This document shows positions 26,740 to 45,193 of a DNA stretch of 64,000 nt, piece by piece. The notes beneath the pieces are model-generated. The model was given only the letters and a program-made list of their open reading frames with translations. It was not told the origin of the DNA and did no database searches. Both the position numbers and the translations under genes were made by a program. This DNA is from Xanthobacteraceae bacterium. Its GTDB lineage: Bacteria; Pseudomonadota; Alphaproteobacteria; Rhizobiales; Xanthobacteraceae. The stretch covers positions 24,577 through 88,576 of the forward strand of contig JALHRD010000013.1 of the NCBI GenBank assembly GCA_022841625.1, in the 5' to 3' direction. Within the stretch, counting starts at the first letter, position 1. Each line of letters opens with the position of its first letter.

Positions 26740-26904
26740 CGTCTTCGGTCCTCTCCACTTTCGCCCAATCACTGTCGGTCCGCTCATCCGTTAGCCGCAA
26801 CCTGTGGCGAGATCGCGGCTGCGCGACAAAATTTTACCTAATTTCAATACCGGCAGGTGGGATGGATCTCAATCCGCGCGCAAGGCACTTTACGTCTAAT
26901 ACCG

Positions 26905-29325
26905 TCAGTCGGTGTCGTTGCCCATCAAAATTTCGCGCTTTCCGGCATGATTGGGCTGCCCAATCACGCCTTCGTGCTCCATCCGTTCTATCAGCGAAGC
27001 CGCGCGATTGTAGCCGATCTGCAATCGGCGCTGGATGTAGCTGGTCGAAGCTTTCTTGTCGCGCAGCACAATCTGCACCGCCTGCTGGTAGAGGTCCGTT
27101 GCATCGCCGGTCGCGCCCATGCTGGTGGCGTCGAATATCGGGTTGCCGTTTTCGTCGACTTCCTCGTCCGGGGTCGTTACCGCGTCGAGATATTGCGGTG
27201 TGCCCTGGGCCTTGAGGTGGCGCACGACCTTCTCGACTTCCTCGTCGGAAACGAACGGCCCGTGAACGCGGCTGATTCGACCGCCGCCGGCCATGTAAAG
27301 CATGTCGCCCTGACCGAGCAGTTGCTCGGCGCCTTGTTCGCCCAGGATGGTTCGACTGTCGATCTTGGACGTTACCTGGAACGAAATACGCGTTGGGAAA
27401 TTCGCCTTGATCGTGCCGGTGATGACGTCGACGGACGGACGTTGCGTGGCGAGGATCACATGCAGGCCGGCGGCGCGCGCCATCTGCGCAAGCCGCTGCA
27501 CGGCGCCTTCGATGTCCTTGCCGGCCACCATCATCAGGTCGGCCATTTCGTCCACGATGATGACGATAAAGGGCAGGGGCTCAAGATCGAGCTGTTCATC
27601 CTCGTAGATCGCCTCGCCGCTGTCTTTGTCGTAACCGGTATGAACTGTGCGGGACAGCTTCTCACCCTTGCTCTTGGCTTCCACAACGCGTGCATTGTAG
27701 CCTTCGATATTGCGCACGCCGAGTTTCGACATCTTCTTGTAGCGTTCCTCCATCTCGCGCACGGCCCATTTGAGCGCGACGATGGCCTTTTTCGGGTCGG
27801 TCACGACCGGCGTCAGAAGATGAGGGATTGCATCGTAGACCGACAGCTCGAGCATCTTGGGGTCAACCATGATCAGCCGGCATTGCTCCGGTGTGAGCCG
27901 GTAAAGCAAGCTCAGGATCATTGTGTTGATGGCGACCGATTTGCCGGAGCCGGTGGTGCCAGCGATCAAAAGATGTGGCATGCGCGTGAGATCGACAATG
28001 ACCGGCTCGCCCCCGATGGTCTTGCCGAGGCAGAGCGGCAGTTTGGCGGAGCTCTTGGTGTAATCTTCCACCGCCAGCAATTCGCGCAAATATACTTTTT
28101 CGCGTTGCGGATTGGGCAGCTCGATGCCGATGGCGTTGCGTCCGAAGACGACCGCGACACGCGCGGACAACGCGCTCATGGAGCGGGCGATGTCATCGGC
28201 CAATGCAATGACGCGCGACGACTTGATGCCGGGCGCGGGTTCCAACTCATAGAGCGTTACAACCGGGCCCGGCCGGGCATTGATGATTTCGCCGCGCACC
28301 CCGAAATCGCCCAAGACGCCTTCCAGGGCGGTGGCGTTTTCCTCGATGATGTCGTTGCTGAGGGTCGTGCGTTCGCGAGATTTCGGAGCCGACAGCAGCT
28401 CGAGTGCCGGCATCTTATATCCGGCGCGGCGCTGCTGTGCAGTAAGACGCGATTTACGCGGGGCCTCTTCCTCTTCGTCCTCTTCGTCGTCGTCCTCTTC
28501 GTCGTCCTCGTCTTCGGCGTCGTCCTTGACCGGTGCGCCCTTAAAGCCATCGAAACGCGGTTCGACACGCCCTGCTGCCGCCTGTTGTAGTGCGACGCGT
28601 TCGCTTCGGCGGCGCTCCATCCAGCGGGCCAATCGGGATTTGAGACTGAGGAATCCGTGGGTAATGAAGCCGAGCGAAATCAGACCGCGGCTCGGTCGCG
28701 ACGCCGTTTCTTCATCGTCTTCGTCTTCCTCAACAGCATCGACTTCAGGGGGCGTGCGCCAGCCAAATCCAAATGTCAAAGCCAGGGCGATGGAGGCGCC
28801 GACGCAGGTCGCGGCGCCAATGATTATGCGGGCGATGCCGAGCGCATCGTTGCCGGCGATCCAGATCGCGAACCGCAGCAGGGCATCGCCGGTGACGCCA
28901 CCCAGGCCGGCCGGCAGCGGCCAAGCCGATGTGCGCGGCAGGCATGCGGCAAAGCTTGCCACCAGCACGACGGCGACAACCCATGCGATCACGCGCAGCC
29001 ACTCGCGGCAGAGTTCGCGATGGGTGGTCAAGCGCCAGCCCCAAACGCCGATCGGGAGAATGAGCGCAATCGAGGCGACGCCGAACAACTGCATCATCAA
29101 GTCGGCGGCAATGGCGCCTGAAAAGCCGAGTAGGTTGCGTGCCGGGGCTTGGGTTGCGTGACTCAAGGATGGGTCTTGCGCGGACCAGGACGCGAGCGCG
29201 ATGGCGAACAGGACCGCGAGCAGGATCAAGCTAACGCCAACCAATTCCCGCACGCGCCGCCGCAGCGCGTCGCGCAGGCTGTCGGCGAAACTGAGACTGT
29301 CATAATCGCGGTCGATGGCCGACAT
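26905..29325 (-). CDS. ftsK: DNA translocase FtsK
   Basis: 806 aa with N-terminal TM helices and an acidic linker ([16 protein letters not shown]). The motor domain has Walker A GTTGSGKS and [12 protein letters not shown]. The gamma domain has [26 protein letters not shown]. Confidence 0.96.
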
Positions 29326-30796: not shown

Positions 30797-32263
30797 TTAC
30801 ATCGTGTAGGCGCGCTCGCCGTGGTTCACGATGTCGAGGCCTTCGCGCTCCTGCTCGACCGTGACCCGCAGGCCGACCAGGATGTCCACCACCTTGAAGA
30901 TGATGACCGAGCCGACGCCGCTCCACACCAATGTCAGCAGCACGGCCTTGGCTTGCGCAATCATCTGCGTGTCGAAGGCGTATTCGGCGATTTTGCCAGT
31001 CTCGTAGTTCATGATGCCGGTGCCGCCGAGCGACGGATTCACCAGGATGCCGGTAAGGAGGGCGCCCAGGATGCCGCCGACGCAATGCACGCCGAACACA
31101 TCGAGCGCATCGTCGTAGCCGAGCATGTTCTTGATCGTGGTGCAGAACATGAGGCACACAATGCCGGCGATCAGACCGAGCACGATTGCGCCCATCGGGC
31201 CGGCATAGCCGGCGGCGGGTGTAATCGCCACCAGGCCTGCGATGCAGCCCGACAAGGCGCCAAGCAACGAGGCTTTGCCCTTGATCAGCCATTCGGCAAA
31301 CAACCAGGACAATGCCGCCGCTGCGGTTGCGACGAAGGTGTTGATCATTGCAAGGCCGGCGGCGGCGCCGGTTGCTTCAAGCGCCGAACCGGCGTTGAAG
31401 CCGAACCAGCCGACCCACAGCAGCGCCGCGCCAATCATGGTCATGACCAGCGAGTGGGGAGGCATCAGTTCCTTGCCATAGCCGGTGCGACGGCCGACCA
31501 TGATTGCGCCGATCAAGCCGGCGAGTCCGGCATTGATGTGCACCACGGTGCCGCCCGCGAAGTCGATCGCGCCCCAGCCGAAGATCAGGCCGGCGTCGGC
31601 ATTGACCGCTTCGAGTTTGGCCGCCAATTCGGCTTTGTTGGCCGGGGTTGCCGCTGCCAGGGCCTTGGCAGCTTCGGCGATGGCGTCTGGGCCGGCCCAA
31701 TACCAGACCATGTGGGCGATCGGGAAATAGATGAAGGTCACCCACAGCGGAACAAACAGCACCACGGCGGAGAACTTCATGCGTTCCGCGAAAGCGCCGA
31801 CGATCAGCGCCGGCGTAATCACCGCAAACGTCATCTGGAAGCAAACATAGATGATTTCGGACAACGGCACGCCGACCGAGAAGGTGGCGGCGGGCGAATC
31901 GCCGGTGACGCCGCGCAGGAAGAGTTTGTCGAAGCCGCCGATAATCGAGGTGCCACCGGTGAAGGTGAGGCTGTAGCCGTAGATCACCCAGATCAACATC
32001 ACGATGCAGACCGTGTAGAAAACATGGGTGAGCACCGACAGGGCATTCTTGGGCCGCACCAGGCCGGCATAGAACAAGGCCAGGCCGGGGATGGTCATCA
32101 ACAGAACCAGCACCGTCGAGGTCATCATCCAGGCCGCGTCGCCCTTGTTGAAATTGGGCGGCGGCGGCGCGGCCGGTTCGGCGAGGCCGGGAACGGTGAG
32201 CAGGAACGCCGCACCGGCCAAAGTCAGTGCCGCCAGTCCCGCGCGGGTGAGTGTGTTAAGCAT
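30797..32263 (-). CDS. amtB: Ammonium transporter AmtB (copy 1, 488 aa)
   Basis: It has a signal peptide and the Amt signature stretches FAGGTVVHINAGLAGL and DDALDVFGVHCVGGILGALLTG. It lies immediately downstream of a P-II gene. Confidence 0.95.
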   Translation of the reverse strand: MLNTLTRAGLAALTLAGAAFLLTVPGLAEPAAPPPPNFNKGDAAWMMTSTVLVLLMTIPGLALFYAGLVRPKNALSVLTHVFYTVCIVMLIWVIYGYSLTFTGGTSIIGGFDKLFLRGVTGDSPAATFSVGVPLSEIIYVCFQMTFAVITPALIVGAFAERMKFSAVVLFVPLWVTFIYFPIAHMVWYWAGPDAIAEAAKALAAATPANKAELAAKLEAVNADAGLIFGWGAIDFAGGTVVHINAGLAGLIGAIMVGRRTGYGKELMPPHSLVMTMIGAALLWVGWFGFNAGSALEATGAAAGLAMINTFVATAAAALSWLFAEWLIKGKASLLGALSGCIAGLVAITPAAGYAGPMGAIVLGLIAGIVCLMFCTTIKNMLGYDDALDVFGVHCVGGILGALLTGILVNPSLGGTGIMNYETGKIAEYAFDTQMIAQAKAVLLTLVWSGVGSVIIFKVVDILVGLRVTVEQEREGLDIVNHGERAYTM

Positions 32264-32295
32264 TGTGATGGACTCCTTGATTTGGATGCGCGGGC

Positions 32296-32685
<390 letters not shown>

Positions 32686-32740
32686 TCACTTCGCTTCTCC
32701 GCGCGAAGGAACCGCCCGTGGGCAATGCAGGGACTCTCTA

Positions 32741-32757
32741 ATCAAGCCCCGTGCCAG
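32741..32757 (-). promoter_or_regulatory. Candidate sigma-54 (-24/-12) promoter for glnK-amtB copy 1
   Basis: The minus strand reads CTGGCACGGGGCTTGAT against the consensus TGGCAC-N5-TTGC. The -24 element and the spacing are exact, and the -12 reads TTGA instead of TTGC. It lies about 107 nt upstream of the glnK ATG. Confidence 0.35.
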
Positions 32758-33016
32758 ATCGTTGCCACGAGCCTAAGTTATTGGAAAAGCCAAACAATGC
32801 TGCGGGCGCGCATAAACCCAGCAGCGCCGCTGTGGCCGCTCGCTTAAACGCCAGTCAGGGCTGCCCAATTAGTAGGCAGTATCTATTTGGCAACCAGCCC
32901 CGCTCCCAGCCGGCTTGAAAACGTTATTCCGTGATGGCCATCACAGCCGGTCGCCGTTGCCGCCCGTAGGTATTCCGCATCAGCCCGACGATCGGGCGCT
33001 AGAGAGGAGCACCATC

Positions 33017-33910
33017 ATGGCGACGTTGACCAAATTGACTGCGGCCTCCAATCCGGGCCTTTACAATCTGGGCCTTTACATCAATGGCACCGATCTCAAC
33101 GACACGTTGTTTGGCACCGCCTATGCGGACGAGATCCACGGCGGGTTCGGCGCGGATGTTCTGTTCGGCTATGCCGGCAATGATCGGCTGTTCGGCGAGG
33201 CCGGCAACGATACGCTGAATGGCGGCATCGGTGACGACGTCCTCGACGGCGGCACGGGCAATGACCTGCTGATCGGCGGCGCGGGCGCCGACGCCTTTAT
33301 CGGCGGTGGCGGCTTCGACACCGTCAGCTACGCCTCGGCTGGCACCGCTGTGTCTATCAATGTCGCTGTCGGTGGCGCGATCGGCGACGCCCAGGGCGAT
33401 ACGTTTAACGGCATTGATAAGTTCATTGGATCGTCCTTCAGCGATACGCTGGTTGCCGACGACAGCGGCGTGGCGATCAACGGCGGCGCTGGCAACGACG
33501 ATATCTGGGGCGGTGCCGGACTCGACGTTCTCAACGGCGGCTCCGGCGACGACTGGATCGAAGGTGGCGGCGGGCTCGACGTGCTAACCGGCGGTACCGG
33601 AAACGATCACTTTGTGTTCAACCGGGGTGACGGTCCCGATCTTGTGACCGACTTTCAATCAGGCATTGACAAGATCGCTCTGCGTGATGGACTCAACTAC
33701 TTCCCCTTGGGCACTGATGGCCAACTCTGGACTGGCACCGAACTTCCTCCAGAACGCAATGGTGTTGGAGGCGGGCATCAGTTCCAGGACAAGCTGTTCT
33801 ACGACACCAACGACCACCAGCTCTATTATTTGAGCCCGTTCTATGAAGCGACGCTGATCGCGTCGTTCGGTAACGGCGCTCAATTGCAATCGAGCGACTT
33901 CATTTTCTGA
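33017..33910 (+). CDS. RTX-type (hemolysin-type) calcium-binding repeat protein
   Basis: The start was set at ATG 33017 behind AGAGGAG. It has two blocks of GGxGxD nonapeptides (GGFGADVLFGYAGNDRLFGEAGNDTLNGGIGDDVLDGGTGNDLLIGGAGAD and GGAGNDDIWGGAGLDVLNGGSGDDWIEGGGGLDVLTGGTGND). There is no N-terminal signal peptide, which is consistent with a type I secretion substrate. Confidence 0.85.
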   Translation: MATLTKLTAASNPGLYNLGLYINGTDLNDTLFGTAYADEIHGGFGADVLFGYAGNDRLFGEAGNDTLNGGIGDDVLDGGTGNDLLIGGAGADAFIGGGGFDTVSYASAGTAVSINVAVGGAIGDAQGDTFNGIDKFIGSSFSDTLVADDSGVAINGGAGNDDIWGGAGLDVLNGGSGDDWIEGGGGLDVLTGGTGNDHFVFNRGDGPDLVTDFQSGIDKIALRDGLNYFPLGTDGQLWTGTELPPERNGVGGGHQFQDKLFYDTNDHQLYYLSPFYEATLIASFGNGAQLQSSDFIF

Positions 33911-33920
33911 GCAAGGCAAT

Positions 33921-33961
33921 CTCAAATAAAAGAAGTCCCCAGCCGGATCACGGCTGGGGAC
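33921..33961 (-). terminator. Intrinsic terminator for amtB copy 2 (the hairpin may also stop the convergent RTX gene)
   Basis: GTCCCCAGCCG-gatca-CGGCTGGGGAC (33935-33961) has a perfect 11-bp stem. On the minus-strand RNA it is followed by UUCUUUUAUUUGAG. Confidence 0.65.
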
Positions 33962-33983
33962 CAGCTTCAAAGGACAGTAAAAT

Positions 33984-35318
33984 CTACTGCAACGCTTCGC
34001 CGTGCTGGGTAACGTCCAGGCCCTCGATCTCGCTCTGCTGGCTGACCCGCAGCGGCACGATCAGCGCGATCACTTTGAGGATCACAAACGTCGCAAGGCC
34101 CGACCAGACCGCGGTGACCGCTATGCCGTAGAGCTGAATCAGAACTTGCCCACCATTGCCTTCGAGCAGTCCCGCGGTGCCCGGGGTTCCCGGCGCATCC
34201 GACAGGGCGGCAACGGCGAACACGCCGCACAGCAAAGTGCCGAGCGCGCCGCCGACGCCGTGGATGCCGAACACGTCAAGCGAGTCGTCATAGCGCAATT
34301 TCTGTTTGAGCCAGGTGCAGGCCCAGTAGCAGATCCCGCCGGCCAAGAGACCGATGACCATGGCCTGCCACGGCAGCACAAAGCCCGATGCCGGGGTGAT
34401 GGTGCCGAGGCCGGCGACCGCGCCAGAGATCATGCCGAGCACCGAGGGTTTGCCGCGGGTCCACCATTCGATCGCCATCCAGGTGAGGGCGCCGACGGCG
34501 GCAGCGAGATGGGTCGCCACGATCGCAAACACCGCGCGCGAGCCCGCGCCGAGCGCGGAGCCGCCGTTGAAGCCGAACCAGCCGACCCACAACAGCCCGG
34601 TGCCGATCACCGCGAGCGCCAGGTTATAAGGCGAGAAATTATCGTTGCCGTAGCCGTGACGCGCGCCAATCACATAGGCGGCGACCAGGCCGGCAATGCC
34701 GGCATTAAGGTGCACGACCAAGCCGCCTGCGAAGTCGAGTACGCCCGCCGTCATCAGGAAGCCGCCGCCCCAGACCCAATGGGCGAGCGGCACATAAACC
34801 AGGAACAACCAGAGGATTGCGAACCATACGAAGGCGGAGAACCGCATCCGGTCGGCGACGGCTCCGGCGACCAGCGCGACGGTGATGATCGCGAAGGTCA
34901 TCTGGTAGAGCATGAACAGCATTTCGGGAATGGTCTTGGCGGCCGAATGGATGGTCTCCAGACCGATGCCTTGCAGCAGCAGCCGGTCGAGATTGCCGAG
35001 GATCGGCCCTTCGCCGCCAAAGGCCAGCGAGTAGGCGCCGACGGCCCACAGCACCGAGACCAGCGCCGCGCAGAGCAAACTTTGCGCCATGGTGGCCAGC
35101 ACATTTTTCTTGCGCACCATGCCGCAATAAAACAGCGCCAAGCCGGGTACGGTCATCAGCAGCACCAGCGCGGTGGCCGCGATCATCCAGGCGGTATCGG
35201 CGGCGTCGATCTTGGGCGGCGGCGCCGCTTCGGCGAATGCCGGCCCGATGCTGCCAAGCAACATTAGAAAAGCCGCGATGCCGGACAGCACGCGGACAGG
35301 TGACGCCTTCGTCGTCAT
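33984..35318 (-). CDS. amtB: Ammonium transporter AmtB (copy 2, 444 aa)
   Basis: It has a signal peptide, FAGGLVVHLNAGIAGL and DDSLDVFGIHGVGGALGTLLCG. It is clearly diverged from copy 1. Confidence 0.95.
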   Translation of the reverse strand: MTTKASPVRVLSGIAAFLMLLGSIGPAFAEAAPPPKIDAADTAWMIAATALVLLMTVPGLALFYCGMVRKKNVLATMAQSLLCAALVSVLWAVGAYSLAFGGEGPILGNLDRLLLQGIGLETIHSAAKTIPEMLFMLYQMTFAIITVALVAGAVADRMRFSAFVWFAILWLFLVYVPLAHWVWGGGFLMTAGVLDFAGGLVVHLNAGIAGLVAAYVIGARHGYGNDNFSPYNLALAVIGTGLLWVGWFGFNGGSALGAGSRAVFAIVATHLAAAVGALTWMAIEWWTRGKPSVLGMISGAVAGLGTITPASGFVLPWQAMVIGLLAGGICYWACTWLKQKLRYDDSLDVFGIHGVGGALGTLLCGVFAVAALSDAPGTPGTAGLLEGNGGQVLIQLYGIAVTAVWSGLATFVILKVIALIVPLRVSQQSEIEGLDVTQHGEALQ

Positions 35319-35408
35319 CGATGTTCCCCCCAGTTAAGCGCCGTTAACGGCGCCAGAGCATTCCGTTGGTCACGCTTCTGCGCGGACGAATGATATTTCG
35401 AATGACAT

Positions 35409-35798
<390 letters not shown>

Positions 35799-35956: not shown

Positions 35957-36829
35957 TTAGCCCCCCGTCCGTCGCTCGCGCACCAGGCCTTCCTGCGCCA
36001 CCGAGGCTACCAGGGTGCCGTCACGCGCAAAGATCAGCCCGCGCGAAAAGCCGCGGGCGCCGGCCATGTTGGGCGAGTCCTGCGCATAGAGCAGCCAGTC
36101 GTCGGCGCGGAACGGCCGGTGCAGCCACAGCGCGTGATCGAGGCTTGCCGCCATGATGGTCTTTTCAAACACGCTGCGGCCGTGCGGCGTCAGCGCGGAA
36201 TCGAGCAGCGTCATGTCGGAGGCATAGGCCAGCACGCATTGGTGGATTGCCGGCTCGTCCGGCAATGTGCCGGTGGCGCGGATCCAGACATTGAAACGGC
36301 CGCCTTCGATCGCTTTGCCAAGATAGCGGTCATACTCGACCGGGCGCAGCTCGATCGGCCGTTCGCGCTCGTAATAACGCCGCACCGGCTCCGGCATTAG
36401 CGGCAGCACGCGCTCCCGGATTTCGGCCTCGGTCGGCAGTTCGTCGGGGGAGGGGACATCCGGCATCTTGGCCTGATGCGCGAAGCCGTCCTCGTCGCGG
36501 TGGAACGAAACCGACATGATGAAGATCGGCTGGCCGTGCTGGATCGCCTTGACCCGGCGGGTGGTGAAGCTCTTGCCGTCGCGCACGCGCTCGACGTCGT
36601 AGATGATCGGCACCTTGGGATCGCCCGGAAGCAGGAAATAGGCGTGCATCGAATGCGGCGGCCGCTCCGCGACATCGACGGTGCGGCAGGCCGCGACCAG
36701 CGCCTGCCCGATCACCTGGCCGCCGAACACCCGCTGCCAGGTCACCTGCGGCGAGCGGCCCTGGAACAGGTTCACCTCGAGCTGTTCGAGGTTGAGCGTG
36801 TCGAGCAGGGCTTGGAGGGCGGAGGACAT
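35957..36829 (-). CDS. tesB: Acyl-CoA thioesterase II
   Basis: 290 aa. Length and motifs (LFQGRSP...RVFGGQVIGQAL, HSMHAYFL, double hot-dog layout) fit TesB. tesB next to glnK-amtB is also the E. coli arrangement. Confidence 0.88.
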   Translation of the reverse strand: MSSALQALLDTLNLEQLEVNLFQGRSPQVTWQRVFGGQVIGQALVAACRTVDVAERPPHSMHAYFLLPGDPKVPIIYDVERVRDGKSFTTRRVKAIQHGQPIFIMSVSFHRDEDGFAHQAKMPDVPSPDELPTEAEIRERVLPLMPEPVRRYYERERPIELRPVEYDRYLGKAIEGGRFNVWIRATGTLPDEPAIHQCVLAYASDMTLLDSALTPHGRSVFEKTIMAASLDHALWLHRPFRADDWLLYAQDSPNMAGARGFSRGLIFARDGTLVASVAQEGLVRERRTGG

Positions 36830-37073
36830 GGCTAATAGGGATGCCGGGGTTGTAGCGGAGTCAGGTATAGACTTACTGCGCTTGATACAACTCTATTGCA
36901 CGAGGTCCCTCTCCTGTGAGGAACTCCACGCCTCTCTTGTGAGGAAGCTGTAAAGTGACTCAGTATACCTCTACATTATGCCTCCCCATTTGAGGCGTAA
37001 CCAATGTCGCTTGGTGGTGCCAGATCGACCTTGCTGGCGGTCGCGCCCGGCTGGGCCTAAGGAGCGCTCGCCG

Positions 37074-37763
37074 ATGGAATGGGATGTCTGGTTTCAGGAC
37101 AAGACCTTCACCACCGATTGGTCTTCGAGCAATTATGCCCACTGGGCGCGAAACTGTGAAAAGTTTCGCCAGCGCGCCGTTTCGGTTTTGGAGATCGGCT
37201 CGTGGGAGGGCCGGTCGGCGATCTTCTTTCTTGAGTTTCTGCCAAAGTGCCGGATCAGCTGCATCGACACGTTCGCGGCCGGGCCTGGCTACGCCTACTT
37301 GGGCGATGCGGTCGTTAACTCCATCGAGGCTCGGTTCGACTCCAATCTTTCGCCTTATCGGGATCGGGTGCGGAAGTTGACATCGCGGTCGCTTCCGGCG
37401 CTCGACCAGCTCGCGCAGGAAAACGCGACATTCGATTTGATCTATATCGACGGCAGCCATGCCCGCGACGACGTTCTGATGGACTCGGTTCAGGCTTGGC
37501 GTCTGCTCGCGCCCAACGGCATTTGCATTTGGGACGACTATACCTGGGGCTTACCCGACATGCCGTCTGCAGAGCGGCCCCAGCACGCCATCGACGCCTT
37601 CCTGGATTCGCATGCCGACGAGTTTCAGATCCTCCACACCTCCGCCCAGATCGTTGTAGAAAAGCGCCCCGGCGGCCGAGCGAATCGTGGAAACCGCCTT
37701 ACATTTCCGCGCACGGCGGCGAACTTGATGCGGTTTCTCACCCGCCGGCCGATGCGGCATTAG
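37074..37763 (+). CDS. Class I SAM-dependent methyltransferase (O-methyltransferase / Methyltransf_24-like), island MT1
   Basis: The start was set at ATG 37074 behind AAGGAG. Motif I is VLEIGSWEGRSAIFFLEF, followed by FDLIYIDGSHARDDVLMD and NGICIWDDY. Confidence 0.72.
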   Translation: MEWDVWFQDKTFTTDWSSSNYAHWARNCEKFRQRAVSVLEIGSWEGRSAIFFLEFLPKCRISCIDTFAAGPGYAYLGDAVVNSIEARFDSNLSPYRDRVRKLTSRSLPALDQLAQENATFDLIYIDGSHARDDVLMDSVQAWRLLAPNGICIWDDYTWGLPDMPSAERPQHAIDAFLDSHADEFQILHTSAQIVVEKRPGGRANRGNRLTFPRTAANLMRFLTRRPMRH

Positions 37764-37785
37764 CAAAGCGGAGATCAGCAGCACC

Positions 37786-38619
37786 ATGACAGAGCGCCAC
37801 CGGCCGCGGGTCTACGACTGCTTTACGTTCTTCAACGAACTGGATGTTTTGGATATTAGGCTTGCTGAGCTTGATATGCTGGTGGATTATTTCGTGATCG
37901 TCGAGTCCACGCGAACGTTCACGGCAAAGCCAAAGCCGCTCTATTACGCCGAGAATCGGAAGCGGTACGATCGCTACGCCCACAAGATCATCCATGTGGT
38001 TGTAGACGACCTTCCCCTCGACGCTCCGACTCATTGGATCAGAGAATGGCATCAGCGCGACGCGATCTTGCGTGGCCTCAGCACCGCTCGTCCGGACGAT
38101 CGCATCATCGTTTCCGATTGCGATGAAATCCCAAAACCTGAAGCGTTGCGGCAAGCGCTGTTGCTTCGGGGCATGTCGCGCCGGATTGTGATGTTTTGGT
38201 GTGAAAACTATTTCTGCAAATTAAATCTACGCAATGACGCGCACGACCATCGCTTGGGTCCGTGCCTCCTAGCCATGAAAAATCTCAAGTCGCCGCAACG
38301 GTTGCGCGAGATTCCGTTTCGTTTCTCGAAGCGCCGCTACTTGCGAAAAGTGGCCGCGCCGGTTGCATGCTATCGGCTGTCCCGCCGTCTTCGAACGGCT
38401 CTTTGGCCAAAGATCTTCTGGAACGGTGCTTGGCATTTCACCTGCATCGGCGACGCGACCGCCGTCAATCTGAAGTTCTCATCATTTAGCCATGTCGATG
38501 AGATCGGGGAGTTCACGGACAAGGAATATCAAAATCTTCTGTCGACACTTAGGAAGCGCCCGCTTGTCGATTTGCCGCAGTCGATCCAGCAAGCGAAATT
38601 TGCCCACTTGATTGCGTAG
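37786..38619 (+). CDS. Glycosyltransferase family 17-like protein (bisecting GlcNAc-transferase fold)
   Basis: VYDCFTFFNELDVLDIRLAELDMLVDYFVIVESTRTFTAKPKPLYY, then W.REWHQRDAI and IIVSDCDEIPKP. These match my recollection of the GT17 signature (DCF.F.NE.D.L..RL.EL...VD.FV..E...TF.G..KPL, D.DEIP). Confidence 0.72.
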   Translation: MTERHRPRVYDCFTFFNELDVLDIRLAELDMLVDYFVIVESTRTFTAKPKPLYYAENRKRYDRYAHKIIHVVVDDLPLDAPTHWIREWHQRDAILRGLSTARPDDRIIVSDCDEIPKPEALRQALLLRGMSRRIVMFWCENYFCKLNLRNDAHDHRLGPCLLAMKNLKSPQRLREIPFRFSKRRYLRKVAAPVACYRLSRRLRTALWPKIFWNGAWHFTCIGDATAVNLKFSSFSHVDEIGEFTDKEYQNLLSTLRKRPLVDLPQSIQQAKFAHLIA

Positions 38620-38634
38620 GCGAAATTATATCGT

Positions 38635-38998
38635 TCGGGCGGTGACCCCGCGCGGCGGGTCTCCCAGCAACGCCAGAACGGGTTCAACGTGCGGTCGCCG
38701 CCGGTTCATCTGCCGGGATCGCTGCCCGATGGTTGCAGGCAGTTCGGACGTCCGCGCGAGGTCTGCTCGGTTATCGAGGCGGTCGGAAAGATCGCTCAGC
38801 TGGTTTAAGAGGTATGAAACGGTGTCGTGAGCCTTGTGATAGTGCTGCCGCAGTGTGCGAAGTTCGTTGGAGGTGTCGCCGTAGATGACGAACTCATCCG
38901 GCCGCTACGTCTGCGCGACATAACTGTCGAGCATCTCCCGGAGGAACCGCTCGGAGTTGTAGGCGCACATGGCGACGGCAATCGAAGACGAAAGCATG
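38635..38998 (-). pseudogene. Family-2 glycosyltransferase remnant with a frameshift and an in-frame TAG
   Basis: Own minus-strand translation from ATG 38998 gives MLSSSIAVAMCAYNSERFL. After a 1-nt shift in the CCCGGG run (about 38938-38941) it continues REMLDSYVAQT, then a stop (TAG, complement of cta at 38905-38907), then RPDEFVIYGDTSNELRTLRQHY. This is the GT2 N-terminal pattern (S...YN.E.FL...L.S...QT..P.E.I..DD.S.D.T...L..Y). The rest of the frame has no GT2 features. Confidence 0.5.
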
Positions 38999-39094
38999 CC
39001 CACCACTGGAATGACGCAAGTCAGCACGTTAACGTCGCACATCTGGCCGTTAACTTACATGGTGAGAGGGTGCGTCAGGGTTAGGAGCGCGGTC

Positions 39095-39352
39095 CTATGA
39101 ATAAGTGTATTTTCGCGCCCCTGCGCGATCTTTTCGCCCAGGCTCCGCATTTTCGTAGAGCTGGATGCACGCCTGGGCGGTTTGTTGGGATTCCTCGCAA
39201 CACAAAATGTCGATGTCGGCACGCCATCCTAAATAGGCGTCGACCTCGTCAGTGATCGTGACCGGGACGCCGTGCGCTGCGGCTTCGGGAATCTTGACCG
39301 GTACGCAATAGCTAACGCGGTTGGCGGCGACGAGCGCGCGCTGCCAGGTCAC
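39095..39352 (-). pseudogene. C-terminal fragment of a GT-B (GT4-like) glycosyltransferase
   Basis: The 85-aa ORF reads ...VKIPEAAAHGVPVTITDEVDAYLG....ILCCEESQQTAQACIQLYENAE. This resembles the last roughly 80 residues of GT4 enzymes (..EA.A.G.PV..T........G.........LA..I..L..N). No N-terminal domain is present upstream. Confidence 0.4.
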
Positions 39353-39480
39353 CGGCGGCCAGCGGCCGTGGTCGCGTCAAGGCCGGTCTTGACGCAGGTT
39401 ATGTTGACGTTCGGCGCGCCTCTTGTGAGGACAAGAGAAAGCCATTTCAATAGGTTCCGCGAAAGGAGAACATAAGCAAG

Positions 39481-40239
39481 ATGGTTGCCAGTGGTCCCAC
39501 CCCTCGCCGAGTCGTCTATACGGCGATTTATGGTGGGTTTGATCGGCCTAAGCCTCATGCGGCGTTGCCCGGTGTTGATTTTCTTTGCTTTACGGACAAT
39601 CCAAATCTCAGCCATCCGGACTGGGAGGTCTGCTACGAGCCGTCACGCTACCCGCATCCGAGGATGGCGGCCAAATTCCATAAGCTGGTCGGTCACGAGC
39701 GACTTGCGGGATACGACCAAAGCGTTTGGATCGATGGGTCAGTGGAACTTCACGACGGGCATTTTGTCGAACTTGCGACTTCGTATTTGCGGCACAGCAG
39801 CCTTGCGATGTTCGCGCACCCATGGCGCTGCGATATTTTTCAGGAACTCGACGCTTCGCTCAAATTGGAGAAATATAAGGGTCTCCCGCTACGCGAGCAG
39901 GTCGAGTATTACCACAAGCAAGGCTTCAACTCCGACAACGGTCTATACCATTGCGGGGTTCTGATCCGGGATCTGCGCGACCCTTTCCTTACGACGTTGG
40001 GGCAGGCCTGGATGCAGGAAAACCTCGATTGGACGTATCAGGATCAGATCAGCTTTCCTTACGTCATCTGGCGGCATGATTTTCGCCCGGCAGTCCTGCC
40101 GTATCCAGCGATCGGCAATCGATGGATTGAATGGCACCCGCACGAACGCGAGGAACGCAGGAAGAAAACGCTGTTCTCTCGAACGCGCGACGAATTGTTG
40201 CGATTCCACCAGCGCATGGCCAATGCCAGATCAAGGTAG
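39481..40239 (+). CDS. DUF616 / TOD1-MUCI70-like glycosyltransferase-domain protein
   Basis: The ATG follows AAAGGAG. VVYTAIYGGFD, FLCFTD and K......L......S.WIDGS fit my recollection of the DUF616 N-terminal signature (IYT.I.GGYD). Confidence 0.65.
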   Translation: MVASGPTPRRVVYTAIYGGFDRPKPHAALPGVDFLCFTDNPNLSHPDWEVCYEPSRYPHPRMAAKFHKLVGHERLAGYDQSVWIDGSVELHDGHFVELATSYLRHSSLAMFAHPWRCDIFQELDASLKLEKYKGLPLREQVEYYHKQGFNSDNGLYHCGVLIRDLRDPFLTTLGQAWMQENLDWTYQDQISFPYVIWRHDFRPAVLPYPAIGNRWIEWHPHEREERRKKTLFSRTRDELLRFHQRMANARSR

Positions 40240-40972
40240 TACCTTCGTGACCCAGCCGCCCCCCGATCTCTTGGAAAATTACAGCGGGACGTTTCATCGC
40301 GCGATCAAGGAAGGATCCCTTCGCAGCGCGCGCCGCACATGGCCAGTTGTTCTTGCGGGGGCGACAGCACCGGCCAGCGCCGTCGATATCGGTTGCGGAC
40401 TGGGAACGTGGCTTGCCGCGCTACGTGAAATCGTCCCGGGGTGCGAGGTTACCGGCGTAGACCATCCGGGAGTCGTCAAGTCGGATCTGTTGATCCCATC
40501 GGAGCGGTTCATTGGCCGCGACTTGACGAAGCCCATAGAACTTGGGCGACGATTTGATCTTTGTCTGTCGCTTGAGGTAGCCGAGCACTTGGCACCGGAA
40601 CACAGCTTGGGATTTGTACGGTCACTCGCTGATCAGTCCGACAACATCCTTTTTTCGGCTGCTGTGCCGGGTCAGGGCGGAGAATCTCATTTGAACGAGC
40701 AATGGCCATCCTATTGGATTGGACTCTTCTCCAGTCATGGGTATCGCTGCTTTGATTTCATTCGCCCGAACATCTGGAAGGACCGGCAAATCGAATGTTG
40801 CTATCGCCAAAACATTCTATTTTTCACCAAACAGGACATTCATCTTGAATCCGTTCAGCAGAATTGGCACGGCGCCGATATTGTGCATCCTGAGATGTTC
40901 ATTATCCACCACAGGAGCACGTTGCCGCGAACGGCAAAAAACTTGTTCCGGTTCCTTGCGAAGCGGCTTTGA
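40223..40972 (+). CDS. Class I SAM-dependent methyltransferase (Methyltransf_11/23-like), island MT2
   Basis: The start at ATG 40223 overlaps the end of the preceding gene by 17 nt. Motif I is AVDIGCGLGTWLAAL, followed by FDLCLSLEVAEHL. Confidence 0.72.
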   Translation: MPDQGSTFVTQPPPDLLENYSGTFHRAIKEGSLRSARRTWPVVLAGATAPASAVDIGCGLGTWLAALREIVPGCEVTGVDHPGVVKSDLLIPSERFIGRDLTKPIELGRRFDLCLSLEVAEHLAPEHSLGFVRSLADQSDNILFSAAVPGQGGESHLNEQWPSYWIGLFSSHGYRCFDFIRPNIWKDRQIECCYRQNILFFTKQDIHLESVQQNWHGADIVHPEMFIIHHRSTLPRTAKNLFRFLAKRL

Positions 40973-41034
40973 GATGCCAACGACGCTTGCCGATTCGGCG
41001 CCTGCTTGCAAATAGACGATCTGGGAGTCTTGAG

Positions 41035-41862
41035 ATGTATGATTGGCGCAATTCTCCTCATGAATTATCGGAACTCGCAGACCTGTTTCCAATTCCCTCG
41101 CAAACGTCGATCAATGATAAGCTGTTTTTACTTGGATCAATTCGATTGGCTCGCGACACCGGGGCGTATGCATACCTCGAAATCGGCTCTCTGCTCGGCG
41201 GAAGCCTTACACCATTCTTGAAGGACCCGGCTTGCAAGTTGGTGCTGTCGGTCGATGACAGGGGGAGGGTGCAGCCGGACGAGCGCGGGACCAGCTACGA
41301 CTATTCCGGTATTACGACTCAGTCGATGCTGGACGAACTAAATCGTTGCAGGATAGGAACTGAAAAGTTGCGGACGTTTGACGGGTCCATCCACGCGTTG
41401 CCCGACAATTACGACGGCGCGTTCGACATGGCGCTCCTAGACGGCGAGCATACGGACGAAGCGTGCTTTCGCGACTTTCTCTGGACGCTTCCCCTGATGA
41501 AGTCCGACGCCGCGATAATGTTTCACGATAGCACCTTGGTCTATAAGTCGTTGAAATTGATTATGGTGTATCTCGACAAAGCGAAGATTGAATATTCGTT
41601 CTTTAAACGGGCGAACTCAGAGATGTCGATCCTTGTTTTGGGAGAATACGCCCGTAGGGACATTGCCCAATATGTCGGACCCCAGGAAGATCCGGCGACT
41701 TTTTTCGCGGGTGCCGAAGCGCTCATGATCAAGTGTCAGTATGAGAACCGCGCGCGATTGCGCTTCGCTCCGGCCAAGTTGTTGAAGCTGAAAATTCCCG
41801 TCGCCGTCGATATCGAGACTCCGAAAGTAGAGAAAATTCATTTGGCTAGATCGATCGCTTGA
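41035..41862 (+). CDS. Class I SAM-dependent methyltransferase (Methyltransf_24-like), island MT3
   Basis: The start at ATG 41035 follows GGGAG. Motifs YLEIGSLLGGSLTPFL, FDMALLDGEHTDEACFRDF and AAIMFHD. Confidence 0.68.
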   Translation: MYDWRNSPHELSELADLFPIPSQTSINDKLFLLGSIRLARDTGAYAYLEIGSLLGGSLTPFLKDPACKLVLSVDDRGRVQPDERGTSYDYSGITTQSMLDELNRCRIGTEKLRTFDGSIHALPDNYDGAFDMALLDGEHTDEACFRDFLWTLPLMKSDAAIMFHDSTLVYKSLKLIMVYLDKAKIEYSFFKRANSEMSILVLGEYARRDIAQYVGPQEDPATFFAGAEALMIKCQYENRARLRFAPAKLLKLKIPVAVDIETPKVEKIHLARSIA

Positions 41863-41926
41863 GCCGCCGTTACTTTGCCCATTCGCCATGCTATCGAACC
41901 GGGAGCGAAGACTCAAGGAGAGCTGA

Positions 41927-42832
41927 ATGGGGATCGATATTCCGTCAATGCAATTCCTGTGCTGTGCAAGGAGCATCGGTGTCGATTTCTCGGAAACGAT
42001 GACGGTCGGGCGACAGACCGTGGTGGGAACGCCGGACGCCGTCGCTTCGGTCCTAAGCGCGATCAAAATTCCGCGCGAACAAGCCTCCGCTATCTCGAAC
42101 GGTCAGTTTGCTGAACCGCTTTTTACCCTTCTTGGCGCAAGGCAGGTTTCGTCAGTGGATGCGTCCGACTATGAGCAGGCGACCCACGTTCATGACTTTA
42201 ACCAGCCGATACCGGCGACTCTGGTAAATCGATTCTCCGTCGTTCACGATGGCGGGACCATCGAGCATGTCTTCAATGTCCCGCAGGCGTTCAAGAACTG
42301 CATGGAGATGGTTCGCGTGGGCGGTCATTTCATCCAAGTTAATGTTGCCAATAACTGCATGGGGCACGGGTTCTGGCAATTCTGTCCGGAATTGATCTAC
42401 CGCATATTTTCGCGAGAGAACGGATTTCAAATCAAGGCCGTCTTGTTGCACGAGTTGAACACGGGTGTGAGCGGAGCGTCACGCGGCAGATGGTACAAGG
42501 TCGATGATCCTGCCGCCGATCACAACCAAGTCGCACTGATCAACCGTCGGACCACATACATCTGTACGATCGCGCAGCGCGTGGCGGAGGCCAAGATTTT
42601 CTCACGTTTTCCTCAGCAGTCGAATTACGTCGAAGCCTGGAAACAAGCGCGCGAACCGCGTTCGCAGTCCCCAAACAAACGGCGGGAGATGATCCGAGGG
42701 ATGATCCCGCGTCCCGTCAGGAATTTGACTCGCTGGGGTCGCGTCACCATTCGAAAGGCGCGCAATCCGTTTAACCGCCCGTACTATCACCGCATCGCCG
42801 CCGACGACGTCGTGCGCGGCCGGATTGATTGA
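41927..42832 (+). CDS. Probable class I methyltransferase-fold protein with a weak motif I, island MT4
   Basis: The ATG follows AAGGAGAG. FSVVHDGGTIEHVFNVPQAFKNCMEMVRVGGHFI is a typical post-I/II methyltransferase stretch. The N-terminal MTVGRQ resembles O-antigen-cluster methyltransferases. No clear GxGxG motif is present. Confidence 0.5.
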   Translation: MGIDIPSMQFLCCARSIGVDFSETMTVGRQTVVGTPDAVASVLSAIKIPREQASAISNGQFAEPLFTLLGARQVSSVDASDYEQATHVHDFNQPIPATLVNRFSVVHDGGTIEHVFNVPQAFKNCMEMVRVGGHFIQVNVANNCMGHGFWQFCPELIYRIFSRENGFQIKAVLLHELNTGVSGASRGRWYKVDDPAADHNQVALINRRTTYICTIAQRVAEAKIFSRFPQQSNYVEAWKQAREPRSQSPNKRREMIRGMIPRPVRNLTRWGRVTIRKARNPFNRPYYHRIAADDVVRGRID

Positions 42833-42966
42833 TCCAGAGCACGGAATTAACGGGCTGGCTTGGGGTTTGCTTGCCGCGCGCCGCCGTAGGGTTGCTGTCG
42901 GCCGCCATTCGTCCCGCGCTGTCTATGTTGGCTGTACCTTGGCCGTGTTCGCCGGACGCAAGCCCG

Positions 42967-43782
42967 TTAACTGCCCATCTGGACGTGAAACGGCCTGCGG
43001 ATCGGGCGCTTCTCGATTACGACGACATCGAGATAGAAAAATATGCCGTAGGTCGTTTCGGCAAACGGCATGGCGGCGGCTTGTGCTTCACCGTCCAGGT
43101 ACCATCCCTGCAATCGGTCAATCAGCGTCTTCGTATGCTCGGCGAACGTACCCGAGCGACCCAAACCGCCTTCGTGCGTCGGCCAGTAGGAACAGTGCAA
43201 GTCTTCGCAGACATAGATGCCGCGCTCCGAAATTCGGGGATAGAGATATTCGAAGGTGGGAATCTGATGTCGGCCGAGATGGCTGCCGTCATCGATCACC
43301 AGATCGATCGCTCCGCCGAGGCGCTCGATGGCGGCGCTGAGCACCGCGGGGTCGGATTGGTCGCCGATGATCACCGTGTTCTCGGGATCGACGCGTTGCG
43401 CACATTCGGGGTCAATGTCGATGCCAACGATGCGTGCCCGCGGTCCAAAATACTTTCGCCAGACTTCAAGCGAACCGCCGCGGCTCACGCCAAGTTCCAA
43501 AATGCGCAACGGCTCCTCTTGTTGCCGCAGTGGTTCGAAGTGTCGTTCATAGATTTCGAGATAGTGATGCCATTTCTGAGCGATGCGTCCCCGATGCCCG
43601 TAGAAAAGTGCTTCTAACGCGCCGGCTGGCTGGACCAGTCTGCGCGCATCGTCGGGCGACCGGCTCCATGCGTCGGCGGGGTCGGTCTGACGCTCCTTCC
43701 CGCGTATGCGATCGATAACGGCCTGAATCTTGCGTCCGAAGGAGACACTCATGTGAGCTTTGAAGGGCTGGTATGAATACAC
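42967..43782 (-). CDS. Class I SAM-dependent methyltransferase, CmcI / sugar O-methyltransferase-like, island MT5
   Basis: KWHHYLEIYERHF, ILELGVSRGGSLEVWRKYFG, IVGIDIDP and LVIDDGSH. A GTG start lies at 43782 and an alternative ATG at 43752. Confidence 0.72.
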   Translation of the reverse strand: MYSYQPFKAHMSVSFGRKIQAVIDRIRGKERQTDPADAWSRSPDDARRLVQPAGALEALFYGHRGRIAQKWHHYLEIYERHFEPLRQQEEPLRILELGVSRGGSLEVWRKYFGPRARIVGIDIDPECAQRVDPENTVIIGDQSDPAVLSAAIERLGGAIDLVIDDGSHLGRHQIPTFEYLYPRISERGIYVCEDLHCSYWPTHEGGLGRSGTFAEHTKTLIDRLQGWYLDGEAQAAAMPFAETTYGIFFYLDVVVIEKRPIRRPFHVQMGS

Positions 43783-43951
43783 GACGGAACGGGCATATCT
43801 TGCCGATCATTTTGACACCGGTGGTCGGGATGCGCCAGTAGGGATGCAATTTCACATTCACGTCTCCTCACCCAGTGAGTAAAGTGAGGCCGATGATGGA
43901 GCTGCTCTCGCCCTCTCATCAAAGCACCGTCATAAGCAATTCATTGCGATC

Positions 43952-45193
43952 ATGACCACCGCCACTAACACACGGACCGACATCCTCATCGCCGGCGCGG
44001 GCTTTGCCGGGCTGGCGCTGGCGATTGCGCTCAAGCAGGCGCTGGGGGCGTCGTTTGCGGTGGTGGTCGCCGATCCAGCGCTGGCGCGTAGCGGTGACGA
44101 TCCGCGCGCCTCGGCGATTGTGGCGGCCGCGCGCCGGCTGTTCGAGACCCTCGGGGTGTGGCACGAGATCGCGCCCCGCGCCCAGCCGATCCTGGACATG
44201 GCGGTCACCGACAGCCGGCTCAACGACGCCATGCGGCCGACCTTCCTGACCTTCGACGGCGAAGTCGCGCCGGACGAGCCGTTCGCGCATATGGTCGAGA
44301 ACGACCCGTTGCTAAAGGCGCTGTTGGCGAAGGCACGGGCGGAAAATGTCACATTGCTGAACACCGCCGTTGCCGATTTTGCGGCTGCGCCGGATCGCAT
44401 CGCGGTTCACCTTCGTGACGGCACAACGCACGCCGCCCGCTTATTGGTGGCGGCCGATGGCGCACGCTCGTCAATCCGCGAACGCGCCGGCATCGCAACC
44501 CACGGCTGGGATTACGCCCAATCGAGCATCGTGACCACAGTGCGGCACGAACGCGATCACCACGGCCGTGCCGAAGAGCATTTCTTGCCGGCCGGGCCGT
44601 TTGCGATCCTGCCGCTCAAGCGCGACGCCACGGGGCACCGTTCGTCCATCGTCTGGACCGAAGCATCGGCCGAGGCCGAGCGCATCGTCGCGCTGGACGA
44701 CGCGGGGTTTCACGCTGAACTCGAAAAGCGCTTCGGGCTGCGTCTGGGTGAGATCGAAGCGGTCGGGCCGCGCCGTGCTTTCCCGCTGGGGCTGTCGGTT
44801 GCGCGTAGTTTCGTCGCCGAACGCATCGCGCTGATTGGCGACGCCGCGCATGTGATCCATCCGATCGCGGGGCAGGGGCTCAATATGGGTCTCAAGGATG
44901 TCGCGGCGCTGGCCGAGGCGATTGTCGATGCGGCGCGGCTTGGGCTCGACCCGGGATCGCCGGTGACGCTCGATCGCTACCAGCGCTGGCGGCGCTTCGA
45001 CACCATGGTGATGGGCGTCGCCACCGATGGACTGAACCGGCTGTTCTCAAACCATTCGGATGCGCTGCGGCTTGCGCGCGATGTTGGATTGGGCTTGGTC
45101 GATCGCCTGCCGGCGCTTAAGCAATTGTTCATTCGCGAGGCTGCCGGGCTTGCCGGTGAGGTGCCGAAGCTGCTCAGGGGCGAGGCGCTATAA
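43952..45193 (+). CDS. UbiH/UbiF/VisC/COQ6-family FAD-dependent hydroxylase (ubiquinone biosynthesis type)
   Basis: 413 aa with DILIAGAGFAGLALA, LLVAADGARS and LIGDAAHVIHPIAGQGLNMGLKD. Confidence 0.87.
   Translation: MTTATNTRTDILIAGAGFAGLALAIALKQALGASFAVVVADPALARSGDDPRASAIVAAARRLFETLGVWHEIAPRAQPILDMAVTDSRLNDAMRPTFLTFDGEVAPDEPFAHMVENDPLLKALLAKARAENVTLLNTAVADFAAAPDRIAVHLRDGTTHAARLLVAADGARSSIRERAGIATHGWDYAQSSIVTTVRHERDHHGRAEEHFLPAGPFAILPLKRDATGHRSSIVWTEASAEAERIVALDDAGFHAELEKRFGLRLGEIEAVGPRRAFPLGLSVARSFVAERIALIGDAAHVIHPIAGQGLNMGLKDVAALAEAIVDAARLGLDPGSPVTLDRYQRWRRFDTMVMGVATDGLNRLFSNHSDALRLARDVGLGLVDRLPALKQLFIREAAGLAGEVPKLLRGEAL

Follow-up and report, generated by a model that had tools for sequence, protein, structure and literature searches.

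A hypervariable gene slot between tesB and ubiH in uncultured Xanthobacteraceae and its probable role in tailoring a surface polysaccharide

O-antigen and capsule loci that sit between housekeeping genes, such as galF-gnd in the Enterobacteriaceae, carry a whole pathway, with sugar-nucleotide genes, an initiating transferase and either Wzx/Wzy or Wzm/Wzt. Accessory modification of the O-antigen is the task of Gtr clusters and of phage-borne glycosyl- and acetyltransferases, the Gtr products being membrane proteins that act in the periplasm. Here we analyse a block of genes in a 64-kb stretch of contig JALHRD010000013.1 from a Xanthobacteraceae bacterium; the full 64 kb is called the window, and its positions 36830-43951, between tesB and a UbiH-family hydroxylase gene (ubiH), are called the island. 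Like the galF-gnd type of locus, the island has a lower GC (guanine plus cytosine) content than the genome, a fixed site and a content that varies between close relatives, and its alleles diverge more than the flanks (here 2-5 times in synonymous divergence, dS) and would be exchanged through homologous recombination in those flanks. It differs in that the full pathway is encoded there, whereas the tesB-ubiH site holds tailoring enzymes only, in 0.8-8.7 kb, and as little as one methyltransferase in locus L102. With Gtr and lysogenic-conversion modules it shares tailoring genes away from the main cluster, strain variability and phage-borne relatives, but unlike Gtr proteins its products are all predicted to be soluble, and the window contains neither an integrase nor a prophage. 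We think that the block is probably the local version of a hypervariable glycan-tailoring locus, kept between tesB and ubiH by one clade, whose soluble enzymes decorate a surface polysaccharide made elsewhere.

The island and its anchors comprise the following features (MT, methyltransferase; GT, glycosyltransferase; SAM, S-adenosylmethionine):

35957..36829, minus strand: tesB (acyl-CoA thioesterase II), the conserved left anchor (TIGR00189, 1e-93).
36931..36967, plus strand: leader copy 1, a promoter-like element upstream of MT1, CTTGTGAGGA ... CAGTATA.
37074..37763, plus strand: MT1, class I SAM methyltransferase (Methyltransf_24, Pfam 1.1e-18), with the C-terminal tail FPRTAANLMRFLTRR.
37786..38619, plus strand: GT17-like glycosyltransferase with a DCDE (DxD-type) motif (PF04724, 6.5e-27).
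38716..38997, minus strand: decayed GT2 gene, N-terminal third only (PF00535, 5.6e-5, model positions 2-58 of 168), with an in-frame stop at 38905-38907.
39098..39334, minus strand: decayed GT4 gene, C-terminal ~80 codons only (Glyco_trans_1_4, E=0.006, model positions 81-142 of 142, a weak match).
39328..39371, minus strand: tesB' scar, a 44-nt copy of tesB codons ~22-37, 84% identical to 36721-36764.
39372..39480, plus strand: apparent old tesB-DUF616 intergenic region (109 nt), which aligns with the tesB-DUF616 spacer of locus L003 and holds leader copy 2.
39417-39452, plus strand: leader copy 2, upstream of DUF616, at the head of the right module.
39481..40239, plus strand: DUF616, a TOD1-MUCI70 glycosyltransferase with a predicted GT-A fold (PF04765, 5e-12) and the C-terminal tail FSRTRDELLRFHQR.
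40223..40972, plus strand: MT2, class I SAM methyltransferase (Methyltransf_23, Pfam 30.1 bits, cut-off 27), with the C-terminal tail LPRTAKNLFRFLAKR.
41035..41862, plus strand: MT3, class I SAM methyltransferase (Methyltransf_24, Pfam 33.8 bits, cut-off 26.3).
41927..42832, plus strand: MT4, a divergent class I methyltransferase fold (AlphaFold/Foldseek) of a family without Pfam annotation, with the amphipathic helix IPRPVRNLTRWGRV.
42967..43782, minus strand: MT5, MycE/TylE-like sugar O-methyltransferase (Methyltransf_24 and FtsJ above the Pfam cut-off; PDB 3ssm, 8ia9).
43952..45193, plus strand: UbiH-family ubiquinone hydroxylase, the conserved right anchor (NF005599, 3.5e-193).

A scan with the UbiH protein, taking one genome per species, yielded 80 loci for comparison (L-numbers denote comparison loci). 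In ~70 of these 80, tesB and ubiH are divergent neighbours lying 70-320 bp apart. Cargo occupies the site in the four closest relatives (L001-L004) and in three loci reached by way of homologs (L084, L085 and L093). In a neighbour-joining tree of TesB and UbiH, the filled loci that could be included (the window, L001-L004 and L085) group as a single clade, whereas the site is empty in the sister lineages L025 and L052; the filled-site clade is one of uncultured soil Xanthobacteraceae. An earlier note on this DNA, made from the window alone, had proposed that adjacency of tesB and ubiH in relatives would indicate an insertion. Since the two genes are adjacent in ~70 species and the site is filled in only one clade, the block is indeed accessory. 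The insertion itself has to be seen differently, not as a one-off recent event but as an old, clade-wide hotspot with repeated exchange of cargo. The composition of that cargo differs in nearly every filled locus, over a range of 0.8-8.7 kb:

L001: GT17, GT11.
L002: GT2 and multi-domain GT/MT proteins of 643 and 858 aa.
L003: DUF616, GT11, MT5.
L004: GT17, GT11, GT2, GT47-like, MT5.
L084: Methyltransf_21, GT17, a 687-aa Methyltransf_13/14/21 protein, an epimerase.
L085: GT17, GT11, a 498-aa unknown protein, MT5.
L099: MT5, a radical SAM protein, a TylF-type methyltransferase, an SGNH-like protein.
L102: MT5 only.

The metagenome contig L093 holds all seven window genes at about 70-85% amino-acid identity, with the order of GT17 and MT1 swapped relative to the window and the dead genes absent. 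MT5 is the hotspot's most widely retained gene, being present in L003, L004, L085, L093, L098-L100, L102 and L112. As a separate matter, the same site in L078 (8893-9837) holds a 314-aa collagen-like putative lipoprotein with Gly-X-Y repeats, unrelated to glycan genes, and the ubiH ortholog of L004 (8024-9415) encodes 463 aa versus 413, with a Gly/Pro-rich insert of ~50 residues in the middle that may be either genuine or an assembly artefact.

In composition, too, the island stands apart, with a GC content of 56.4% versus 63.4% in the remainder of the window. This is the minimum among all 7.1-kb windows, the next-lowest non-overlapping one having 60.3%. Taken in 1-kb steps, GC is 0.62-0.68 in the flanks and drops to 0.52-0.59 between 37 and 44 kb, and at 300-nt resolution the drop extends from the tesB start codon (~36830) to the ubiH start (~43950). 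When the 7 intact island genes were compared with the 44 other genes of the window, gene GC was 0.558 versus 0.633 (Mann-Whitney p=1e-6), GC at third codon positions (GC3) was 0.66 versus 0.76 (p=4e-4), and synonymous codon usage differed as well (p=0.0015). Thus the claim of the earlier note that the block differs in composition from its flanks holds, the codon usage that it proposed as a check differs too, and its two hand counts of G+C, 28/60 at 38161-38220 and 46/60 at 5221-5280, were both exact on recount. A second, milder dip (GC 58-60%, GC3 0.64-0.71) lies at 24001-28000 of the window, over a response regulator gene, a gene of the endonuclease/exonuclease/phosphatase family, lolA and the start of ftsK. 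Closer to the island, 30797-35747 contains two tandem amtB-glnK-like pairs (named by synteny with L085, only open reading frames (ORFs) having been called in the window), between which sits a gene for an RTX calcium-binding repeat protein (32915-33910); RTX-repeat genes occur in this neighbourhood in L084 and L093 also.

The window's version of the locus bears the marks of assembly in steps. In L003, DUF616 directly follows tesB, and a three-way alignment places both the scar and the 109-nt spacer. The 44-nt tesB scar, together with the 109 nt that align with the L003 spacer, argues that the right module once abutted tesB. On these alignments the window's version is a composite of two modules, which corrects the view of a single block: the right module (leader-DUF616-MT2-MT3-MT4 and, oppositely oriented, MT5) is the older and first stood directly beside tesB, and a left module (leader-MT1-GT17-GT2'-GT4') arrived later along with a new tesB 5' end, leaving the 44-nt scar, with an 87-nt deletion after its arrival. 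The decayed GT2 fragment in the left module is 72% identical at the DNA level to the GT2 gene of L002. The core of the leader has the form CTTGTGAGGA-N-AAAG-GATTTCAATA, readable as TTGTGA-N17-TTCAAT, in a span CTTGTGAGGA...ATTTCAATA. The motif occurs 3 times in the window versus 0.03 expected, and the core precedes the first plus-strand gene, whatever that gene is, in L001 (~7890-7925), L003 (~7213-7250), L004 and L093; presumably it acts as a promoter. A half-copy of the leader lies at 36908-36922. Other accounts of the repeats were considered and rejected. The 44-nt tesB-like repeat is not a chance match, as the adjoining 109 nt align with the L003 spacer; the repeats found are not att sites, being a fragment of tesB; and the shared gene ends are not recombination sites of the attC type, as their synonymous positions differ and no inverted repeats recur.

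Two dead glycosyltransferase genes in mid-island, a fragment of tesB and a GC content below that of the flanks might suggest that the whole block is decaying, horizontally acquired DNA without a current role. The pattern of selection makes this highly improbable. Against their orthologs (dS ~1 or more), all seven intact genes have ratios of nonsynonymous to synonymous divergence (dN/dS) of 0.05-0.18, like the housekeeping flanks (0.11-0.18 for tesB and ubiH), which indicates that the seven genes are functional and under purifying selection; moreover, all seven are kept in L093, and motifs of catalytic type are retained. The dS values themselves are 0.8-3.1 for island genes versus 0.33-0.74 for the flanks, i.e. 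2-5 times higher, which fits alleles drawn from a wider pool.

Turning to the enzymes, the five methyltransferases are not recent paralogs of one another but represent four or five unrelated lineages. All five assignments stand, four of them (MT1, MT2, MT3 and MT5) on Pfam scores above the cut-offs and MT4 on an AlphaFold model and Foldseek search, so that the reading of five class I methyltransferase-fold proteins in the earlier note is borne out. MT1 and MT3 have orthologs in L093 (63-80% identical with dN/dS 0.13, and 78% identical with dN/dS 0.08, respectively), and the MT2 gene overlaps that of DUF616 by 17 nt. MT4, in which motif I has the unusual form G-R-Q, gave only sub-threshold Pfam scores and belongs to a family of 457 homologs, nearly all of them unannotated. 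Its AlphaFold model, built from a 33-sequence alignment, has a pLDDT (predicted local distance difference test score) of 87, and its top 50 Foldseek matches in the PDB are methyltransferases only (E ~3e-6, TM 0.4-0.48). Distant MT4-like genes (26-30% identity over ~120-135 aa) are found just downstream of tesB in L018, L019, L035, L058, L063 and L070, and several species with such a gene beyond tesB have an empty tesB-ubiH site. As for methylation of DNA, the (D/N/S)PP(Y/F/W) motif of DNA methyltransferases is absent from all five proteins, so a restriction-modification role was rejected; the matches of MT1 to the PHROG 'DNA methyltransferase' family are weak only.

MT5 links the island to sugars. 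Its residues 72-258 align with the catalytic domains of MycE (PDB 3ssm, 1.9e-23) and TylE (8ia9, 8e-20), CmcI also being matched (1.6e-3), and the homology to MycE and TylE would imply O-methylation of a glycosidically bound (deoxy)hexose. No other homologs of solved structure were found in PDB sequence searches, in which MT1, MT3, MT4, GT17 and DUF616 gave no match and MT2 only matches at E>0.03. MycE and TylE are macrolide sugar 2'-O-methyltransferases of 397-419 aa, whereas MT5 has 271 aa and lacks their N-terminal domain, and they belong to a macrolide pathway, of which there is none near MT5. One could take these closest solved homologs, along with a homolog on a Streptomyces plasmid, to mean that what the island tailors is a small molecule bearing sugar, for instance a glycolipid, a glycoside of a hopanoid or carotenoid, or a natural product of macrolide type. 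We regard this as quite improbable, since neither the island nor its flanks hold genes for polyketide synthases (PKS), non-ribosomal peptide synthetases (NRPS) or terpene or lipid synthesis, and since the GT11, GT2 and GT47-like cargo of the sister loci and the polysaccharide-cluster contexts described below suit polymers better. An MT5 homolog (44% identity) also occurs in L096 (Aminobacter sp. SR38 plasmid pSR1, 8992-13304) with two methyltransferases and one glycosyltransferase, among unrelated catabolic genes.

Both intact glycosyltransferases score above the Pfam gathering thresholds of what are eukaryote-type families, GT17 (GnT-III) and TOD1/MUCI70, but the island proteins are short, soluble and without a membrane anchor. 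GT17 reaches 95 bits with PF04724 (cut-off 26), its first ~120 residues alone aligning with model positions 71-191 of 348. The 'SDCDEIP' motif is retained in its orthologs at the same site in L001, L004, L084, L085 and L093 (dN/dS 0.14-0.18). DUF616 reaches 46 bits with PF04765 (cut-off 21.4), and its AlphaFold model (pLDDT 92.8) has a GT-A fold with its best PDB matches among GT6 alpha-1,3-Gal/GalNAc transferases (E ~5e-8); its ortholog in L003 is 83% identical. Plant RGGAT1, of the TOD1/MUCI70 family, is a galacturonosyltransferase acting on rhamnogalacturonan I (PMC10576798). The earlier note had named a GT17-like and a DUF616-like enzyme and two decayed glycosyltransferase genes, and these are all recovered here, the GT2 fragment with its stop by PF00535 and the GT4 fragment by a weak profile match.

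What the island does not contain also fits with that note: by Pfam and inspection of ORFs, no exporter (Wzx or ABC type), Wzy polymerase, initiating transferase, sugar-nucleotide gene, integrase or transposase was found among the island ORFs. Thus it is not a complete O-antigen or exopolysaccharide (EPS) cluster; there is no Pfam match in its ORFs to a phosphoglycosyl transferase of the WecA, WbaP or Bac_transf type, no Wzx/Wzy or Wzm/Wzt and no transmembrane protein encoded in 36830-43951, the maximum 19-residue hydropathy being <1.5 in each of the seven proteins, and the nucleotide-sugar genes missing from the island are represented by an epimerase in some sister loci. Nor is it a seroconversion module of the Gtr type (membrane GtrA, GtrB, GtrC), as no transmembrane segments are present. 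An integrase-mediated island or prophage was not recognised, with no integrase ORF, no att-type direct repeats at the flanks and no prophage in the window; the only tRNA gene is at 50873, with none within ~7 kb of the island. The island is not an integron cassette array either, lacking an integrase and any recurrent inverted repeat at its gene ends. PADLOC reported no defence system, its sole match being a weak one (4.8e-5) of the MT5 methyltransferase domain to mad2. An Rfam scan of 35.5-45.5 kb at E<=1 gave no RNA family and so no SAM riboswitch, and no ops/JUMPStart-like GGCGGTAGnnTG lies near the island, its counts across the window being at chance.

Where relatives of the island genes are found elsewhere, their neighbours point to an exported polysaccharide as the probable acceptor. 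This reading draws on the MT4 relatives, which occur in polysaccharide clusters of three kinds: one of the Wzx/Wzy type that also has NeuB, a CMP-sugar synthetase, GT4 enzymes and a TylF methyltransferase; one in which the neighbours are an initiating transferase (Bac_transf), a GT4 and a NusG paralog; and a Wzm/Wzt cluster with a Polysacc_synt flippase, a GT2, a GT4 and a fusion of GT2 with GT9 (the heptosyltransferase family). In Polymorphum gilvum, the neighbours of a GT17 homolog are a CmcI-type methyltransferase, a GT2 and genes for deoxysugar nucleotides. Four sister loci have genes of the GT11 (fucosyltransferase) family, which suggests a glycan with fucose or another deoxyhexose. Phages carry relatives as well. 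A GT17 homolog (57% identical) is located in a Bradyrhizobium prophage (L082 10001-10843; L082 and L083 are contigs of Bradyrhizobium sp.) between an Amidase_2/SH3 lysin gene and a GP38-type tail-fibre gene, with an integrase and a DNA methylase upstream, a position typical of lysogenic-conversion genes. Relatives of DUF616 are present in contigs that look like those of phages and giant viruses, and DUF616 itself matches a PHROG family of 'moron' glycosyltransferases. Methylated sugars are documented, in non-stoichiometric amounts, in the core of the lipopolysaccharide (LPS) of Bradyrhizobium (PMC5542761). Judged from these homologies, the target is most likely the O-antigen or core of LPS, and an exopolysaccharide would be less likely. 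The suggestion of the earlier note that the island tailors a glycan whose core machinery is encoded elsewhere hence gains indirect support, from the homology of MT5 to MycE and TylE and from the MT4 relatives in Wzx/Wzy and Wzm/Wzt clusters.

The same kind of comparison brings up the possibility that a protein-linked glycan is decorated instead, on flagellin, pilin, a surface-layer protein or an RTX-type protein. In Azospirillum brasilense Sp7, a GT17 domain is part of a 1286-aa GT4+GT17+TPR (tetratricopeptide repeat) protein, flanked by a GT2-TPR protein, two GT41-TPR proteins and a GT4. This cluster lies on plasmid p1 (L095, 1547-18620), in a stretch that is unannotated in its record and whose ORFs were scanned here. 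Fusions of TPR with glycosyltransferases, and GT41 enzymes, are typical of protein glycosylation, and flagellin glycosylation islands are polymorphic and rich in methyltransferases; at the tesB-ubiH site, the RTX-repeat gene at 32915-33910 is 3 kb away. For all that, a protein acceptor seems rather unlikely. The island proteins have no TPR or other protein-recognition domain, no flagellar, pilus or S-layer genes are among the sampled genes of the window, and MT4 relatives keep company with flippases, polymerases and ABC exporters in polysaccharide clusters. The marks of a flagellin or protein glycosylation island (flagellar neighbours; TPR, Maf and OGT-type proteins) were likewise not seen in the island and the sampled flanks.

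A feature common to several of the proteins bears on where they might act. MT1, MT2, MT4 and DUF616, which are mutually non-homologous, end in similar basic amphipathic segments of the form [hydrophobic]-P-R-T-x-x-N-L-x-R-F (aa 211-225, 234-248, 260-273 and 232-245, respectively), in each case the segment with the highest helical hydrophobic moment of the protein. The tails are predicted to be helical. When the six-frame ORFs of the window and of 96 loci (1.7 million residues) were searched with the pattern, only 13 matches were obtained, 6 of them C-terminal tails of hotspot proteins. The L093 orthologs retain the tails, and so does the MT4 family, its member in a Wzx/Wzy cluster among them, with conservation at the peptide level and not at the DNA level. 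The MT2 family is large, and many of its members have comparable cationic amphipathic tails. MT5 has a comparable helix at its N-terminal side instead (aa 14-29). A precedent for such helices is WbdD, which methylates the O-polysaccharide in the ABC-transporter pathway of E. coli O9a (PMC3447403, PMC3482155). WbdD has amphipathic anchor helices, and MT1, MT2, MT4 and DUF616 have helices of this kind, which may bind the membrane; WbdD also has a kinase domain and a coiled-coil ruler, which are absent from the island proteins, and no sequence homology to it was seen. Moreover, WbdD is one terminator, whereas the island encodes five separate small methyltransferases. By this analogy, the C-terminal helix may serve as a membrane or complex anchor, which would favour action on a lipid-linked glycan. 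A bolder and doubtful extension is that the tesB-ubiH site is a plug-and-play slot, in which a shared tail signal recruits unrelated methyltransferases and glycosyltransferases to one inner-membrane machine for glycan assembly, any cassette placed behind the leader re-decorates the surface polymer at once, and the locus is one arm of a receptor-modification arms race with phages. The arms-race part of this idea draws on the phages that carry relatives of the same enzymes.

The soluble nature of all seven proteins could also be taken in another way, namely that the island serves to build or complete a polymethylated oligo- or polysaccharide within the cytoplasm, like the methylmannose and methylglucose polysaccharides of mycobacteria. 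Export and initiation genes are absent and none would be needed, the ratio of methyltransferases to glycosyltransferases is high, and similar exporter-less islets of both enzyme types exist elsewhere. The mycobacterial methylmannose polysaccharide (MMP) cluster consists of a glycosyltransferase, two methyltransferases and a hydrolase, and the island resembles it as a compact set of glycosyltransferase and O-methyltransferase genes without export genes. It differs in having no hydrolase or detectable homology, in varying between strains and in having relatives in exported-polysaccharide clusters. Of the marks of an MMP-type cluster (homologs of ManT, MeT1, MeT3 and the MmpH hydrolase), the hydrolase is absent, and searches of PDB sequences gave no match of that kind. 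We consider a cytoplasmic polymer unlikely: the island has no hydrolase or primer-forming enzyme, no homolog of solved structure beyond MycE, TylE and CmcI, and amphipathic tails that would point to the membrane, and its strain-to-strain turnover and phage-borne relatives are to be expected of a surface structure and not of a housekeeping polymer in the cytoplasm.

If the island does tailor a surface polysaccharide, the two glycosyltransferases and five methyltransferases would act on the lipid-linked or growing polymer, probably at the membrane, and would furnish it with side sugars and O-methyl groups prior to export, with initiation, polymerisation and export of the acceptor encoded elsewhere. 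Homologous recombination would move the cargo between relatives, with the conserved flanks, the shared leader and MT5 as its anchors. The likely pay-off would be variation of a surface antigen and phage receptor, with phage or another selective agent presumably behind it.

Several findings weigh against surface-polysaccharide tailoring at an exchangeable site. No polysaccharide machinery is present among the sampled genes of the 64-kb window, so that the case for LPS depends on where homologs lie in the genomes of other organisms. The GT17 domain of Azospirillum belongs to multidomain glycosyltransferases that are fused to TPR modules and adjoin GT41-like genes, a context commoner for protein glycosylation, and exporter-less islets of glycosyltransferases and methyltransferases, such as that of Aminobacter pSR1, would be just as compatible with a cytoplasmic product. 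The amphipathic tails are of a generic kind, and there is no such tail in the GT17, GT11, GT2 and GT47-like cargo. The raised dS of the island may in part reflect weaker codon bias and not exchange; several comparison loci come from long-read metagenome-assembled genomes (MAGs) with apparent frameshifts; and in a scan for consensus promoters and terminators, counts equalled those in shuffled sequence and the leader did not rise above chance.

Variable low-GC glycan loci under pressure from phage or host are already well known, and the advance would therefore be incremental. The concrete leads that it adds are a methyltransferase family without annotation, GT17 and DUF616 enzymes from bacteria and an amphipathic tail common to several proteins. 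If the interpretation is right, uncultured soil relatives of Bradyrhizobium, an abundant group, would vary their surface glycan by shuffling soluble decorating enzymes at one slot and not by exchanging whole clusters. The locus would then be a marker for strain typing of these MAG lineages, and a compact, tractable system in which to study how LPS acquires varying patterns of O-methylation, which roles the bacterial GT17 and TOD1/MUCI70 enzymes and the MT4 family have, and whether a short amphipathic tail suffices for a new enzyme to join a glycan assembly line.

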